A stretch of 64,000 nucleotides of DNA from Escherichia coli (GTDB taxonomy: Bacteria > Pseudomonadota > Gammaproteobacteria > Enterobacterales > Enterobacteriaceae). The translations under genes were made by a program, and so were the position numbers. Positions 11,537 through 17,388 of this stretch are shown here, piece after piece. The notes under the pieces are model-generated. The model saw only the letters and a program-made list of their open reading frames with translations, ran no database searches and had not been told where the DNA came from. The stretch is from the NCBI RefSeq assembly GCF_041886205.1, contig NZ_CP169029.1; one strand, given 5' to 3'. Numbering within the stretch: position 1 is the first letter of the stretch; every line of letters starts with the position of its first letter.

Positions 11537-12253
11537 ATGAATGAATTTTTTCCTTTAGCAAGCGCCGCCGGGATGACCGTCGGCCTTGCCGTTTGTGCAT
11601 TGATTGTCGGGCTGGCGCTGGCGATGTTCTTTGCGGTATGGGAGTCTGCAAAATGGCGTCCTGTCGCGTGGGCAGGTTCAGCGCTGGTAACCATTCTGCG
11701 TGGCCTGCCAGAAATTCTGGTGGTGCTGTTTATCTATTTTGGCTCCTCGCAGCTGCTGCTGACGCTTTCGGATGGCTTCACTATCAATCTTGGGTTCGTG
11801 CAGATCCCGGTGCAGATGCAGATTGAGAACTTCGACGTTAGCCCGTTCCTTTGTGGTGTCATCGCTCTGTCACTGCTGTATGCCGCCTATGCCTCGCAAA
11901 CGCTGCGCGGTGCGCTGAAAGCGGTGCCGGTGGGCCAGTGGGAATCCGGACAGGCGCTGGGGCTGTCGAAATCGGCTATCTTTTTCCGTCTGGTGATGCC
12001 GCAGATGTGGCGTCATGCGCTGCCTGGCCTCGGTAACCAGTGGCTGGTGCTGCTGAAAGATACCGCGCTGGTCAGTTTGATAAGCGTGAATGATTTAATG
12101 CTACAAACCAAAAGCATCGCTACCCGTACCCAGGAACCATTTACCTGGTACATTGTGGCGGCGGCGATTTACCTGGTGATCACCCTGCTCAGTCAGTACA
12201 TTCTCAAACGCATTGACCTGCGCGCGACACGTTTTGAGCGGAGGCCCAGCTAA
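11537..12253 (+). CDS. artQ: Arginine ABC transporter permease ArtQ
   Basis: 238-aa hydrophobic ORF; operon position. Confidence 0.93.
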
Positions 12254-13888: not shown

Positions 13889-13916
13889 GCCGGAGTGGGC
13901 GAACCCCCACTCCGGC
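13889..13916. terminator. GC-rich stem-loop between convergent artJ and sulfatase gene (no U-tract on either strand)
   Basis: gccggagtggg / cccactccggc 11-bp perfect stem; located between two stop codons. Confidence 0.4.
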
Positions 13917-13928
13917 AAAATCACCTCT

Positions 13929-15410
13929 CTACACTAACCCCAGGCGCTGAAACTGCTCTGGCGGCGCATCATTGTCTTTCATCAACTGAATCAGCAACGC
14001 GATCATCCGGGCCTCGATCGCATCATCATGAATCGGATGCAGCTGCTGCGGATCGTTTTGCAGATCAAACAGCAAATGACCAAACTGATTCAGCCCCTTA
14101 TATTTCTCCTGTGCCGGGATGCGTAGCACCTTTAACCCTTTGGTGAAACGAAACGGTGGAGCCAGCGATAAAGCCCGCATCTCATCCACCGGATAGCGGC
14201 TGTTCATTTTGCAAGCCATTAAGGTGTAGTTAGCAATATCATCCTCACGCCCCGGCAGCGCGGCACGCATATACACATAACGCCCATCGGTTACGTTGAC
14301 ATGACCACTGAAGACACCAAATATAACCGCACTGCGTACCGGTTCATCGTGGCTGACCGTTTTCGCCAGCGGTTGCCCCTGCACATCGGGCGGCACCGGC
14401 TGCTGAAAAAAGTCATACAACGTAGGTGCCCAGTCGATCATCTGCACCAGCGCCTGACGCCGTTCGCCTTTTACACCGCTGCGCGGATCCCATATAAACA
14501 GCGGGTTATTCGCCACTTCGTTGTAATAAGGCATCTGGTTTTTCGCCCACCAGCCATGCTCACCAAGTAAAAAACCGTGGTCGGTGCCAACAATCAGCAT
14601 GGTGTCTCGCCACAGATCGTGCTCATCCATCAGGTCGAGAATGCGCCCCAGGTTACGATCGCACATCGATACCAGCGAGCGATATCGGCAGCGGATATGC
14701 TCCACGGCCTCGTCGCTTTCCTGAACCCTGCCACGTGGCCAGTCATAATACGGCCCGCTCCAGTCATCCTCATATAACGAAAGGTACTCTTCCGTTGTGT
14801 AAAACGGCTCGTGCGGATCAAACGTTTCGACCTGCAATAACCAGTTATCTTGCGCGTGGTTTTTGTGGATAAATGCACAACCCGCGTCAAAGACTTTGGT
14901 TTGGGGAAAATCCGCTTCCTGCTGAATATATTCCCGGTTGGCCCAGTCATGACGCCACAGGCCAGAAACACCGCCGCCGGTCTGCTTTTGCGGCTCCCGT
15001 AGCACCTCGGGAATAGGCGGTTGCGCAACGCTCGCCTGCCAGTGATCGCCTTCCTGGCCGCGCACAATCTCCCATGAACTGTAGCGATTATGGTAATTTC
15101 CGCCACCATCTTCCCAGTAATGCAAATGATCGCTTATCAGGTGGGTATAGATCCCCGCCTTTGTAAGCAGCTCCGGCATGGAGTCGTCAAACGGTTCTAA
15201 CGGCCCCCACTCCCGGTGCAGAAAATTGCATCGCCCGGTATGCAGCTCCCGTCGGGCGGGCATGCAGGGCATACTCCCGACGTAGCTGTTTTCAAAGGTG
15301 GCGGCATGTGCCGCCAGGCGTTGGAAGTTCTCTGCTTTTGTCAATAAGTCGCCATACGGGGGTAAATATCTTTTGTTCAGGCTATCGAACAGGAGAATAA
15401 TGGCTTTCAT
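13929..15410 (-). CDS. Cys-type (formylglycine) sulfatase family protein, predicted cytoplasmic (no signal peptide)
   Basis: 493-aa ORF; sulfatase signature C-x-P-x-R (SMPCMPARRELHTGR) at residues ~46-60; N-terminal LLFDSL..YG resembles sulfatase metal-binding start; last gene of PTS operon. Confidence 0.8.
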   Translation of the reverse strand: MKAIILLFDSLNKRYLPPYGDLLTKAENFQRLAAHAATFENSYVGSMPCMPARRELHTGRCNFLHREWGPLEPFDDSMPELLTKAGIYTHLISDHLHYWEDGGGNYHNRYSSWEIVRGQEGDHWQASVAQPPIPEVLREPQKQTGGGVSGLWRHDWANREYIQQEADFPQTKVFDAGCAFIHKNHAQDNWLLQVETFDPHEPFYTTEEYLSLYEDDWSGPYYDWPRGRVQESDEAVEHIRCRYRSLVSMCDRNLGRILDLMDEHDLWRDTMLIVGTDHGFLLGEHGWWAKNQMPYYNEVANNPLFIWDPRSGVKGERRQALVQMIDWAPTLYDFFQQPVPPDVQGQPLAKTVSHDEPVRSAVIFGVFSGHVNVTDGRYVYMRAALPGREDDIANYTLMACKMNSRYPVDEMRALSLAPPFRFTKGLKVLRIPAQEKYKGLNQFGHLLFDLQNDPQQLHPIHDDAIEARMIALLIQLMKDNDAPPEQFQRLGLV

Positions 15411-15422
15411 TGCTCATCCCTT

Positions 15423-15743
15423 TTATTTGTTTATCAGATAAGGGAAATGCTGTTGGACGACTTCATAAATCTGTGCACCAATCGTTTCACCATCCATAAT
15501 ATTTTCAATCGGGATCAGATATTGCCCGTGTTTCGGGTCCAGACTGACTACGTCGAGTAATTTTTTGGAAATAGCAAAAATATCTGCCCAGTCGGTAAAT
15601 CCTCCCACCTCACCTGCGGCAGTATGTTCCATTTCAACTTTGAACTCATATTTCGTCAGTGCTTTTTTAACGACCGTTTGTAACATCACGCTACTACCGA
15701 CACCATAACCACAGACAAACAGAATATTAATTGTATCTTTCAT
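15423..15743 (-). CDS. PTS EIIB component, L-ascorbate (UlaB/SgaB) family
   Basis: 106-aa ORF; N-terminal INILFVCGYGVGSS with phospho-accepting Cys in the position typical of UlaB-type EIIB. Confidence 0.8.
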   Translation of the reverse strand: MKDTINILFVCGYGVGSSVMLQTVVKKALTKYEFKVEMEHTAAGEVGGFTDWADIFAISKKLLDVVSLDPKHGQYLIPIENIMDGETIGAQIYEVVQQHFPYLINK

Positions 15744-15764
15744 TTTTACATCCTTAATAGTGAA

Positions 15765-17108
15765 TTATCCCGCGTAAGGACCAAGGTGGAATGTTGCAGC
15801 GATAAATTTCAGAACTTCACAAATAGCAGGCCATACAGTTGCCCAGTCAAATATTCCTGTCCAGCCGACGCCATTTTCAGCAAGCCCGGTTAACGGAATA
15901 GCCCACACCGTACCGAAGGTCTGAATAATACCCAGCAAGAAGGTACAGATAATTACGGAGCGGTATCCGCCCATGCGGTTTGCTAAAACGCCAATCGGGC
16001 CGCCTGAGAAAAATAACGGTACAAAGCCTGGCAATACCATAATGGGGCTGTGGATCAGTAATAAGATACCCATCGAGAAAATGGTGCCAAAAGTACAGAA
16101 GACAAAACCTAACGTTGCGGCTTTGGGTGAAAAAGGCAACAGCGCGGCGACATCGACGGCGGGAATGGCATTAGGAATAAAGCGATCCTGCCAGCCTTTA
16201 AAAGAACCGTTAATTTCACCGACCATCATGCGCACGCCCTGCAACAGAATGACCATGTACATGGAGAACTGTAAGCCCAGGTTGATAATATAGATGTACC
16301 AGGGTTTACCTTTTGCCATCATCTGAACGTTATCGATGCCCGTGGAGAGCAGGAACCCGCCAACAAACAGCGTCATCACAATGGCGATAGCCGTCACGTT
16401 GTGGTTAAAAATCGCCAGCCAGCCGGGGAGTTTCAGGTTTTCAGCATCGTGCTTTTCCGGGTCGCCAAATTTATGCGCGAATTTGGAGAAAAACCACAAA
16501 CCCAACATCTGGTTATGGGCAATGGTAAAACCGGCATCTTTGGTCACTTTGGCAATGGGTTTAGCAATGAGCGTGGTGGAAAAAGCCCAGAATATACCCG
16601 TTAATACCCCGGCGATAATAATCGATGTAGTCCAGCTAAATCCTAACCAAAAAACGATTAACCATAATACTGCCTGAGAATGTGACACACCGGTATTACC
16701 GGTCAGGAATATTCCTTTGGCACCGGTATAGCGACCAAACAGCACCAGTAAGAGGTTGGTAAAAAACGCCAGAACAAATACATAACCTACGTAACCAAAA
16801 TTATCCCCCAACGCAATTTGCGTTGCGGCTTTCATGGCGTAGGAATCCATTAAATAACCGTGAACGCCATAGGCTTTACTTACCGCTTCTGCCACCGGTT
16901 TAAAGGTTGCGGAAAACTGAAAACCACCAAATAGCACCATCATTAATCCCACCATGGCACTGACCATACCGGTGATTATTTTGATGGGCGATTTTTTATC
17001 GAGGGCATAACCAATGCCCACCAGCAAACCAATTAATATTGCGGGTTCGGTTAAAAACGTTTGAATAACATCTATGAATTTGGCAAACATCGTCGGAACG
17101 CCCTCCAT
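15765..17108 (-). CDS. PTS EIIC permease, L-ascorbate (UlaA/SgaT) family
   Basis: 447-aa polytopic membrane ORF immediately upstream of the EIIB gene; length and hydrophobic profile typical of UlaA-like EIIC; start could be ATG at 17108 or ATG 18 nt downstream. Confidence 0.8.
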   Translation of the reverse strand: MEGVPTMFAKFIDVIQTFLTEPAILIGLLVGIGYALDKKSPIKIITGMVSAMVGLMMVLFGGFQFSATFKPVAEAVSKAYGVHGYLMDSYAMKAATQIALGDNFGYVGYVFVLAFFTNLLLVLFGRYTGAKGIFLTGNTGVSHSQAVLWLIVFWLGFSWTTSIIIAGVLTGIFWAFSTTLIAKPIAKVTKDAGFTIAHNQMLGLWFFSKFAHKFGDPEKHDAENLKLPGWLAIFNHNVTAIAIVMTLFVGGFLLSTGIDNVQMMAKGKPWYIYIINLGLQFSMYMVILLQGVRMMVGEINGSFKGWQDRFIPNAIPAVDVAALLPFSPKAATLGFVFCTFGTIFSMGILLLIHSPIMVLPGFVPLFFSGGPIGVLANRMGGYRSVIICTFLLGIIQTFGTVWAIPLTGLAENGVGWTGIFDWATVWPAICEVLKFIAATFHLGPYAG

Positions 17109-17296
17109 AAGCGTACATTTCCGTTGTCAATGCATGAACCTTCTGCTGACGTTAATAATGCTTCAGGTATTTTTTATTTTTCGCTAAGCGATGCCTCTGC
17201 TAGTATTCGGTAAACGCACTGTAGTAATCAAAACAGTTCATTTAAAGATCTTATTTGATTATTTGTGATTTGATTTGCAAAAATAGCGCAATATAT

Positions 17297-17339
17297 AACC
17301 GTGATCGATCGGTTAATATTAATCGATCGATCACGGTTA
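17297..17339. promoter_or_regulatory. 43-bp near-perfect inverted repeat containing four GATC sites; candidate operator upstream of the PTS-sulfatase operon (or rlmC 3' hairpin)
   Basis: aaccgtgatcgatcggttaatattaatcgatcgatcacggtta is self-complementary with a single mismatched pair; two GATCGATC blocks. Confidence 0.5.
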
Positions 17340-17388
17340 TTATTTGGAATGGATGTATGCCGAAGTGATATTGATTTGAGTGATGTAT

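Follow-up and report, generated by a model that had tools for sequence, protein, structure and literature searches.

Between rlmC and artJ, the 64-kb window (the whole stretch of Escherichia coli DNA that was analyzed) carries an island of three minus-strand genes arranged as an operon, in which a PTS EIIC and a PTS EIIB are followed by a sulfatase gene as the third and last member (Table 1; RefSeq WP_000644039.1, with ECs_0942 as the ortholog in O157 Sakai). The EIIB stop codon precedes the sulfatase ATG by only 12 nt. The intergenic region upstream of the operon contains a block that is conserved in the copies from Escherichia, Salmonella, Leclercia, Silvania, and Yokenella, all of them enterobacterial, and a CRP-like site falls within it, while a simple scan of the intergenic region revealed no convincing consensus sigma-70 promoter and fewer promoter-like sites than in shuffled sequences. 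The near-perfect palindrome in the same region was flagged as a hairpin, is present in the Escherichia and Salmonella copies and absent from those of Leclercia, Silvania, and Yokenella, and could represent either an operator or the rlmC terminator. At the opposite end lies a GC-rich hairpin that probably delimits the operon on its 3' side; as it has no T-run, it escaped a simple terminator scan. As for regulation by UlaR, the best local alignment between the island promoter and the K-12 ulaG-ulaA intergenic region was not significant (109 of 1,000 dinucleotide shuffles reached it), and the two regions showed a mild enrichment in shared 8-mers (12 versus 4.3; 8/500). UlaR control of the island may thus be taken as a lead only, and no published UlaR motif was found in the accessible texts.

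Table 1. Features of the sulfatase island and its flanks, in window coordinates
Feature	Position	Strand	Description and basis
GC-rich hairpin	13889..13916	.	GCCGGAGTGGG-loop-CCCACTCCGGC; separates the stops of the sulfatase gene and artJ, which run toward each other
Sulfatase, cytoplasmic Cys-type S1	13929..15410	-	493 aa; ORF and translation, PF00884
Formylglycine signature, Cys49 to Arg60	15231..15266	-	CMPARRELHTGR, residues 49-60; translation
PTS EIIB, UlaB-like	15423..15743	-	106 aa; phospho-Cys11 in motif ILFVCGYGVGSS; PF02302
PTS EIIC, L-ascorbate (UlaA/SgaT) family	15765..17108	-	447 aa; PF03611, NF009550
Island-specific regulatory region	17109..17388	-	rlmC stop to IIC start; only in the 566 island-bearing genomes
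CRP-like site	17264-17279		TGCAAATCAAATCACA; within the conserved block of the regulatory region
Near-perfect palindrome, 23+23 nt	17295..17340	.	ATAACCGTGATCGATCGGTTAAT / ATTAATCGATCGATCACGGTTAT; just downstream of the rlmC stop

The sulfatase matches the Pfam Sulfatase model PF00884 (E=6.8e-27; 95 bits, cutoff 25) as well as SGSH_C (47 bits), and its AlphaFold (AF2) model, with a pLDDT of 95.9, adopts the fold of S1 sulfatases and phosphonate monoester hydrolases (PMHs), that is, an alkaline-phosphatase-like alpha/beta fold with a C-terminal subdomain. The top 50 Foldseek matches in the PDB were all S1 sulfatases or PMHs, at a probability of 1.00, and the closest solved clade in a profile search of the PDB was the promiscuous PMH/arylsulfatase group. 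A likeness to GlcNAc-6-sulfatase, which the first PDB search had picked up mainly in the C-terminal half, was no longer the closest in the profile search. No named sulfatase type could be assigned either, as every NCBIfam sulfatase equivalog scored far under its cutoff, specifically, the arylsulfatase PRK13759 (105.7, cutoff 481), the choline sulfatase TIGR03417 (100.6, cutoff 433), PehA NF045661 (102.7, cutoff 900), and the Mn-arylsulfatase NF052527 (52.8, cutoff 850).

The original prediction for this gene had pointed to an intact C-x-P-x-R formylglycine motif, and would have been refuted by a lack of the conserved metal-binding residues; motif and residues are both present. The C/S-x-P/A-x-R signature, together with the auxiliary T58-G59-R60, lies at the nucleophile position of the PF00884 match, and position 49 is occupied by Cys in 51 of the 54 family members, with identities as low as 29%, and by Thr in three distant ones, with P51, R53, and G59 being invariant across the 54-member alignment. 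This placement and conservation argue that the motif is not a chance C-x-P-x-R. Further, D9, C49, D277, and H278 are all present, and D9, D277, and H278 align with the metal ligands of PMH, SpAS, and choline sulfatase. Across the family, D9, R53, H200, D277, and H278 are invariant, and K290 is retained in 53 of 54 members. The site departs from the norm at two points: the second metal position is Ser/Thr10 instead of Asp/Gln, and an invariant D94-H95-x-H97 stands where the classical Lys-x-His pair would be, within a segment (residues 93-157) that could not be aligned to solved structures, while H200 (in DPHEP) and K290 are in place. The predicted catalytic residues are D9, C49, R53, H95, H97, H200, D277, H278, and K290. 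Together, these features indicate that the gene encodes a Cys-type, formylglycine-class sulfatase, and dependence on formylglycine is well supported because a radical-SAM maturase (anSME) or a true formylglycine-generating enzyme (FGE) adjoins its orthologs in other bacteria.

The enzyme lacks the Sec/Tat signal peptide of exported sulfatases, in agreement with the earlier reading of this gene. Its ATG, at position 15410, is the first start codon past an in-frame upstream stop, which leaves no room for an N-terminal extension, and the first beta-strand of the model already spans residues 2-9, ending on the metal ligand D9. The earlier reading had treated the missing export signal as odd; it is instead a defining trait of the whole family, as the N-termini of all 54 aligned members begin at beta-1. 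An export-related explanation of the enzyme was ruled out by the start codon and these family N-termini. The trait is accounted for by a partnership that had been overlooked, since the operon partner is a PTS importer. Judged from its sequence, the PTS-linked sulfatase works inside the cell.

The two PTS partners resemble, and are separable from, those of the E. coli ascorbate system. EIIC shares 38% identity with UlaA over its full length and scores 318 bits against the UlaA model NF006919, under the cutoff of 380, whereas it reaches 959 bits against NF009550 (cutoff 583), a distinct NCBIfam equivalog group that travels with the PTS-linked sulfatase. Measured against the ascorbate-binding residues of UlaA (PMC6048161), the pocket retains Y87, H194, D314, F362, and R288, and in 32 of 32 sulfatase-linked IICs, H135, Q139, and Q195 are replaced by smaller residues and TM4a carries an insertion. 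EIIB is 29% identical to UlaB, with the phospho-Cys aligned. The IIA, IIB, and IIC components of the module are each closest to ascorbate PTS components; no EIIA is encoded in the 64-kb window.

The island occupies its site in 566 of 5,426 complete E. coli genomes, leaving about 90% without it, and Salmonella carries it at the same insertion site; across Escherichia, Salmonella, Leclercia, Silvania, and Yokenella, the three genes are kept together at one site. The locus is carried by the O157:H7, O55:H7, and O145:H28 lineages of E. coli, by most of Salmonella enterica, and by numerous gut Firmicutes. With intact ORFs and a dN/dS of ~0.05 within Escherichia (0.03-0.07 versus Salmonella and Leclercia), the sulfatase is, by these substitution ratios, under strong purifying selection, its function being retained, although shortened versions occur in some E. 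coli (378, 355, and 323 aa). Literature searches on the island locus tags (ECs0940-0942) and on STM0886, which we take to be its Salmonella locus tag, returned nothing functional, and we found no report of a bacterial ascorbate-sulfate sulfatase and no biochemical data for any family member.

Outside E. coli, the module is often richer in genes. Among close orthologs (at least 60% identity; n=37, including 29 non-enterobacterial loci), 34 of the 37 directly follow the same IIC-IIB pair, the IIC lying ~1.7 kb and the IIB ~0.3 kb upstream of the sulfatase in the same orientation. The Firmicute module runs DeoR-IIC-IIB-sulfatase-IIA, EIIA is fused to the sulfatase in two family members, and the module is self-contained in many genomes. 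An anSME above the TIGR03942 cutoff adjoins the sulfatase in six loci, and an FGE (PF03781, 269 bits) does so in an aerobic Neobacillus, where a 23%-identity "anSME" match was discounted as an unrelated radical-SAM gene, leaving the FGE as the maturase candidate. A TauE anion exporter lies immediately downstream in six loci. None of these accessory genes (IIA, DeoR, anSME, FGE, TauE) was found in the 64-kb window or in the eight other enterobacterial loci, save for an anSME that Leclercia carries at a distance of 5.5 kb. Relatives at 41-53% identity have ABC or Tct importers as neighbors and, for one of them, hexuronate genes, so that the family as a whole handles more than one substrate.

The catabolic neighbors of the close orthologs point to ascorbate. 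Among the panel genes tested, the only catabolic ones found beside orthologs of at least 60% identity are those of the L-ascorbate-6-phosphate pathway, in three independent arrangements, and they lie within 9 kb of the module in 6 of the 29 non-enterobacterial loci. In Neobacillus, a single operon reads IIA-IIC-IIB-sulfatase-UlaG-UlaD-UlaE-UlaF, with all components above their cutoffs (UlaG at 653, cutoff 306); Ula genes also adjoin the module in three further loci, and in another two they are adjacent (UlaG at 540, cutoff 306) together with a TctA importer. No Ula genes lie within 9 kb of any enterobacterial copy, including that in the window; the ula regulon, found in 5,425 of the 5,426 E. 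coli genomes, is encoded elsewhere in the genome. As the sulfatase operon coexists with this genuine ula regulon, it presumably serves a different substrate. Ascorbate 2-sulfate is the known natural sulfate ester of the ascorbate scaffold. Published work describes it as a metabolite that is regularly detected in mammals.

That no maturase is encoded beside the gene, as originally stated, is borne out by tblastn searches with AslB, YdeM, a Firmicute anSME, and a bacterial FGE, which gave nothing at E<=1e-3 in the whole 64-kb window. Maturation must depend, as was also anticipated, on a factor encoded elsewhere, and aslB is present in 5,425 and ydeM in 5,346 of the 5,426 complete E. coli genomes. 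The accompanying claim that E. coli uses maturases of the AslB/YdeM class goes beyond the literature. According to Benjdia 2007, as relayed in PMC6189696 and PMC8379841, E. coli modifies only Cys-type sulfatases, by a machinery termed "elusive," and a third system was deduced from aslB/ydeM deletion mutants; PMC6189696 further places the maturation of Cys-type sulfatases in the E. coli cytoplasm.

Building on the operon structure, fold, catalytic residues, cytoplasmic location, module conservation, purifying selection, and links to maturases, TauE, and Ula genes observed or computed here, we consider it somewhat probable that a sulfated ascorbate (most probably the 2-sulfate of L-ascorbate) is imported by the PTS and phosphorylated in the process, and that the sulfatase then frees L-ascorbate-6-phosphate for the Ula pathway, both the substrate and the order of reactions being deduced from this context. 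Specifically, the EIIC/EIIB pair would import the sulfated sugar acid, and a free hydroxyl would be phosphorylated during uptake, presumably O6, as UlaABC does with ascorbate. With C49 converted to formylglycine and D9, D277, and H278 coordinating a divalent metal, the sulfatase would cleave off the sulfate in the cytoplasm, yielding L-ascorbate-6-phosphate, which the UlaG lactonase, UlaD, UlaE, and UlaF would convert to D-xylulose-5-phosphate. The freed sulfate could be assimilated or, in relatives with TauE, exported. Because the enterobacterial copy is without the EIIA, DeoR regulator, and maturase of the Firmicute copies, it would have to borrow host counterparts: an EIIA, for which UlaC is the obvious candidate; regulation by CRP and possibly UlaR; and a formylglycine-forming activity, whether AslB, YdeM, or the third E. 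coli system for Cys-type sulfatases. More tentatively, the module may constitute a new pathway for the host metabolite L-ascorbate 2-sulfate, which E. coli and Salmonella would carry as a minimal add-on that draws on UlaC, host regulation, and the Cys-type formylglycine activity of E. coli.

The same pairing of a PTS with a cytoplasmic formylglycine sulfatase could act on another substrate, be it a sulfated sugar acid, ketoaldonate, or polyol, for example, a hexuronate or gulonate from host or algal glycans. We regard this as unlikely, and as similarly doubtful that the product enters another pathway, with the Ula neighborhoods representing a related but distinct route. It would fit the 23 of 29 non-enterobacterial ortholog loci that are without Ula genes, the self-contained nature of many modules, and a 44%-identity relative that adjoins UxuA, UxaC, a KDPG-aldolase-type gene, and GH2/GH3 genes, and the subthreshold UlaA score and three altered polar pocket positions of IIC also speak for it. 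However, the only catabolic genes found near the close orthologs with the panel tested belong to the Ula pathway, with UlaG above its equivalog cutoff, and the affinity of all three PTS components to those for ascorbate, together with the standing of ascorbate 2-sulfate as the natural sulfate ester of that scaffold, favors sulfated ascorbate.

A larger departure would be an enzyme that is not a sulfatase in vivo and hydrolyzes a phosphate, phosphonate, or phosphodiester in the manner of a PMH, for example, the phosphate of the PTS product or ascorbate 2-phosphate. The original prediction had left room for a hydrolase of another ester class, which the pairing of relatives with sulfatase maturases and TauE-type exporters disfavors. 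Although the best PDB profile matches are PMHs and promiscuous arylsulfatases, weak matches to the phosphodiesterase family PF01663 exist, the Lys of the K-x-H pair is missing, three distant members carry Thr for Cys as do phosphoryl-transfer enzymes of the superfamily, and a PTS-delivered substrate bears a phosphate, we find this improbable: TauE anion exporters follow directly in six loci, removal of the PTS phosphate would reverse the step by which UlaG obtains its 6-phosphate substrate, and dedicated anSME or FGE genes are typical of sulfatase operons, even if PMHs also use formylglycine. More improbable still is that the E. coli island is a decaying remnant, its sulfatase left inactive without an EIIA, regulator, and maturase of its own and its motif a fossil. 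The missing accessory genes, the shortened sulfatases, and the patchy occurrence in E. coli would all be expected of such decay, but low dN/dS and intact ORFs, and the retention of the three genes and the promoter block at one site in five enterobacterial genera, run counter to it. The functions it lacks also appear to be at hand, given that UlaC and other EIIA proteins are available in E. coli and that, according to PMC6189696, its cytoplasm matures Cys-type sulfatases.

If import and desulfation of sulfated ascorbate are indeed the role of the operon, a function would be assigned to a conserved accessory locus of the O157:H7, O55:H7, and O145:H28 lineages, S. enterica, and gut Firmicutes, and sulfated vitamin C would join the niche-defining substrates as a host-derived nutrient. 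A PTS-coupled sulfatase would further act on a substrate bearing a phosphate as well as a sulfate, a class that is unexplored for S1 sulfatases, and would do so with a D-H-x-H variant of the active site. Finally, it has been a question since 2007 how E. coli, which has no FGE, forms formylglycine in its Cys-type sulfatases with neither AslB nor YdeM required. The island enzyme is native to E. coli, cytoplasmic, and of the Cys type, and its growth phenotype can be predicted; it would thereby allow the missing maturase to be sought by a genetic screen and, if our proposal is correct, would be the first native cytoplasmic reporter substrate for this third maturation system.

These findings place the PTS-linked sulfatase beside, and apart from, several known systems. 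With the solved S1 enzymes compared here, namely, SpAS1 and SpAS2 of Silicibacter pomeroyi (4UPI, 4UPL), the PMHs of Rhizobium and Burkholderia (2VQR, 2W8S), the choline sulfatase BetC (6FNY), and Bacteroides S1_11 and S1_46 enzymes (7P24, 5G2V, 7OZ8), it shares the fold with its C-terminal subdomain, the C-x-P-x-R signature, the Asp/Asp-His metal site, and a His and a Lys predicted to bind the ester. It differs in its distance from any solved structure (identity of at most 19%, TM ~0.65), the unaligned residues 93-157, the exchange of K-x-H for D94-H95-x-H97, a Ser/Thr as the second metal-site residue, and its setting in a PTS operon. A leaderless, cytoplasmic sulfatase has precedents in BetC and in AtsA of Pseudomonas aeruginosa. 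Within the same species, AslA and YdeN of K-12 are sulfatases of the same Pfam family, and AslB and YdeM are candidate maturases for the island enzyme. The products of aslA and ydeN are exported and each gene adjoins its own anSME gene, whereas the PTS-linked sulfatase is cytoplasmic and has no adjacent maturase.

The E. coli Ula system offers a parallel for uptake, as its EIIC belongs to the same family (PF03611), the EIIB of the sulfatase operon keeps the phospho-Cys, and the Firmicute copies of the module add a UlaC-like IIA and a DeoR-type regulator. The sulfatase operon is set apart from it by a separate EIIC equivalog, the three smaller pocket residues, the TM4a insertion, and the added sulfatase. 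A further counterpart is the SPH1922-1929 region of Streptococcus pneumoniae (PMC3302838), described and uncharacterized, which combines a lactose-type PTS with a sulfatase, a sulfatase-modifying enzyme, and TauE. Its PTS is of the lactose/cellobiose type, in contrast to the ascorbate type of the island, and the likeness is one of operon make-up, with a PTS importer joined to a sulfatase and, as in some relatives of the island, to a maturase and TauE, consistent with a common logic in which a PTS substrate would be desulfated in the cytoplasm.

Our results indicate that the sulfatase closes a minus-strand operon in which it is preceded by EIIC and EIIB, the UlaA-like and UlaB-like components of a phosphotransferase system (PTS). 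The protein matches the Pfam Sulfatase family (E=6.8e-27), together with an SGSH_C subdomain, and its formylglycine (FGly) signature bears out the original prediction of a C-x-P-x-R motif near residue 50. It scores far below every curated cutoff of the named NCBIfam sulfatase equivalogs, and its RefSeq label is just "sulfatase". The ATG at 15410 is the earliest start codon past an in-frame stop and lies 12 nt beyond the stop of the upstream gene, making an N-terminal leader impossible, in line with the earlier reading that export signals are lacking. Further, in a family alignment of 54 sequences, reaching down to 29% identity, every N-terminus opens straight at strand beta-1 (MKxIxxLxDS), so leaders are absent from the family as a whole.

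Features of the sulfatase operon, its upstream region, and another variable site of the window
Feature	Position	Strand	Details
EIIC	15765-17108	minus	PF03611; NF009550 959 bits vs cutoff 583; 38% identical to UlaA
EIIB	15423-15743	minus	PF02302; phospho-Cys11
Sulfatase ORF	13929-15410	minus	493 aa
Formylglycine signature, residues 49-60	15231-15266	minus	CMPARRELHTGR (translation)
Conserved promoter block	17205-17285	minus	TGCAAAT..TCACAAAnAATCA ... TTTGATTAnTACAGTG; all enterobacterial copies
CRP-like half-palindrome	17264-17279	minus	TGCAAATCAAATCACA; inside conserved block; candidate site
Near-perfect palindrome	17295-17340		23+23 nt; directly 3' of rlmC stop, 5' of island IIC
Pentapeptide-repeat protein gene	6902-8671	minus	589 aa; between ybjQ and ybjP; 13903-15672 in locus L001

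The metal ligands D9, D277, and H278 are invariant in the alignment, as are P51, R53, D94, R117, H200, and D251, while K290 is kept in 53 and Cys49 in 51 of the 54 members. Their presence counters the finding that would have refuted the original prediction, loss of the metal ligands, and makes the protein a genuine formylglycine-class enzyme. An AlphaFold2 model of very high confidence (pLDDT 95.9, pTM 0.94) has no solved-structure neighbors other than S1 sulfatases and phosphonate monoester hydrolases (PMHs) (TM ~0.65, identity at most 19%), and a profile search matched D9, C49, R53, and the H200, D277-H278, and K290 regions to residues that act in catalysis in SpAS1/2, PMHs, and choline sulfatase, leaving residues 93-157 unaligned to solved structures. 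Within the S1 class, the sulfatase is divergent. Its whole family deviates from classical sulfatases in having Ser/Thr, rather than Asp/Gln, at the second metal position and D94-H95-x-H97 where Lys-x-His is usual. Three distant members (P0176, P0194, and P0243; TMPAR, TIPCR) have Thr at position 49, and exactly these three replace H95 with Asn or Thr, which suggests a sub-lineage that has given up formylglycine chemistry, possibly in favor of phosphoryl transfer.

Together with a 280-bp upstream region, the three genes make up an accessory island located between rlmC and artJ. Of 5426 complete E. coli genomes, 566 carry it (O157:H7, O55:H7, and O145:H28 lineages among them; Sakai ECs_0940-0942), as a single chromosomal copy in every case, and Salmonella has it at the identical site. 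The sulfatase is under strong purifying selection: dN/dS is 0.05 in comparisons with O157 and E. whittamii and 0.03-0.07 in those with Salmonella and Leclercia. The island (13929-17388) of this strain shares only ~90.8% nucleotide identity with those O157-type lineages (sulfatase dS ~0.43), and its copies sort into three identity bands (at least 99%, ~95.5%, and ~90.8%), suggesting old polymorphism or multiple acquisitions at the same site. Some E. coli assemblies contain N-terminally truncated sulfatases (clusters P0031, 378 aa; P0036, 355 aa; P0119, 323 aa; P0082, 319 aa), one named as an EHEC hypothetical protein, that would be devoid of the Cys49 motif and represent either pseudogenization in some lineages or gene-calling or assembly artifacts. 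The window also varies at the ybjQ-ybjP position, its second such spot, since O157 Sakai has different hypothetical genes there (ECs_0949 and ECs_0950).

A scan of species-representative genomes yielded 62 loci, and each was searched by tblastn for a panel of potential partners. Among orthologs of at least 60% identity, 34 of 37 have a same-strand IIC ~1.7 kb and IIB ~0.3 kb upstream of the sulfatase; the full Firmicute module typically runs DeoR, IIC, IIB, sulfatase, IIA, and in two clusters (P0044 and P0086) an EIIA_2 domain is fused to the sulfatase C-terminus. An anaerobic sulfatase maturase (anSME) above the curated TIGR03942 cutoff adjoins the sulfatase at loci L026, L030, L046, and L070, and, at L014, a relative of 53% identity that relies on an ABC importer, while aerobic Neobacillus niacini (L034) has a true aerobic formylglycine-generating enzyme (FGE) instead (PF03781 269 bits, C-terminal RGGSYLCHDSYCNRYR). 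At L041, L042, L044, L046, L077, and L014, the next gene after the sulfatase encodes an anion exporter of the TauE family. These maturase and exporter associations argue that the family would be FGly-dependent and release sulfate in the cytoplasm. Relatives farther removed (41-44% identity) are encoded alongside ABC or TctABC importers, and one alongside hexuronate genes, which points to a broader family of sulfatases that act in the cytoplasm on small sulfate esters taken up by the cell. We consider it likely that the general mechanism is that of a PTS-coupled cytoplasmic FGly sulfatase. Homologs also occur, all without PTS, in two Candidatus Lokiarchaeota MAG contigs (54% identity; L054, L076) and in many MAGs of marine SAR86 and other Gammaproteobacteria (47-49%; L064-L074, L078), which indicates wide horizontal spread or, for the archaeal ones, binning contamination.

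The original prediction that no maturase lies beside the gene extends to the whole 64-kb window, which contains no anSME, FGE, TauE, EIIA, or Ula homolog. Among the loci screened, the only enterobacterial one with a curated-model anSME near the island is that of Leclercia sp. 29361 (L022; 3533-4546, minus strand, TIGR03942 449 bits), ~5.5 kb upstream and on the opposite strand. Of 5426 E. coli genomes, 5425 carry aslB and 5346 carry ydeM. According to two papers (PMC6189696, PMC8379841, citing Benjdia 2007), E. coli modifies Cys-type sulfatases only, by machinery called elusive, and a third maturation system was inferred from aslB/ydeM mutants. Hence, it is no paradox for this species to have a cytoplasmic Cys-type sulfatase whose gene lacks a maturase neighbor, and the protein would be a natural substrate of that elusive activity.

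As for the substrate, the only catabolic genes near orthologs of at least 60% identity, among the panel genes tested, belong to the L-ascorbate-6-phosphate (Ula) pathway. In N. niacini, a single operon comprises IIA, IIC, IIB, sulfatase, UlaG, a second small IIB (11628-11927), UlaD, UlaE, and UlaF, with scores above the curated cutoffs for IIC (NF009550, 751 > 583), UlaG (653 > 306), UlaD (327 > 250), UlaE (442 > 200), and UlaF (362 > 257); its upstream regulator contains PRD/EIIA, where Clostridia have DeoR. Bacillus sp. SD088, Olsenella, and an Oscillospiraceae MAG likewise have Ula genes flanking the module, and two Clostridium genomes place the sulfatase within a TctA-UlaG-epimerase-transketolase cluster (UlaG 540 > 306). 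A 2011 paper on the UlaG family mentioned, without interpretation, that the ula regulon of Sebaldella has a sulfatase "inserted" in it (PMC3219644). Compared with the ascorbate-binding residues of UlaA (PMC6048161), EIIC retains Y87, H194, D314, F362, and R288, but all 32 sulfatase-linked EIICs change H135 to Asn, Q139 to Ser/Ala, and Q195 to Asn and gain a TM4a insertion. Judged from these residues, the pocket would fit an ascorbate-like ligand bearing an extra group.

Among mammalian metabolites, L-ascorbate 2-sulfate is one that is commonly measured, and its O6 remains available for phosphorylation by a PTS; on both grounds we propose it as the substrate. The PTS would take it up as ascorbate-2-sulfate-6-P, which the sulfatase would cleave to L-ascorbate-6-P and sulfate, the former then entering the Ula pathway. 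The ula regulon belongs to the E. coli core genome (5425/5426 genomes) and could thus provide UlaC in place of the absent EIIA, with UlaG/D/E/F acting downstream. We lean, with modest confidence, toward an explanation that includes the ascorbate link as most probable, while the specific pathway (PTS 6-phosphorylation, cytoplasmic desulfation, and Ula entry, with UlaC, regulation, and maturation borrowed) is offered tentatively, at a little under an even chance.

The region upstream of IIC is confined to the island, and its promoter block is conserved in Escherichia, Salmonella, Leclercia, Silvania, and Yokenella. The AATCA/TGATT repeats in this block occur in the K-12 ulaA and ulaG promoters too; similarity between the island promoter and the ula operator region is not significant. 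The island-specific palindrome, kept in Escherichia and Salmonella copies and missing from Leclercia, Silvania, and Yokenella, could be an operator, an rlmC terminator, or an insertion scar. Regulatory inferences for the island are weak.

In a literature search of incomplete coverage, we found no functional study of the sulfatase or its Salmonella/O157 orthologs, nor any of a bacterial ascorbate-sulfate sulfatase. Our results place an established enzyme class in an uncommon cytoplasmic setting that is coupled to a PTS and well conserved, and they yield a substrate hypothesis that is specific and testable. In S. pneumoniae, a comparable operon, likewise uncharacterized, unites a PTS, sulfatase, maturase, and TauE (PMC3302838).
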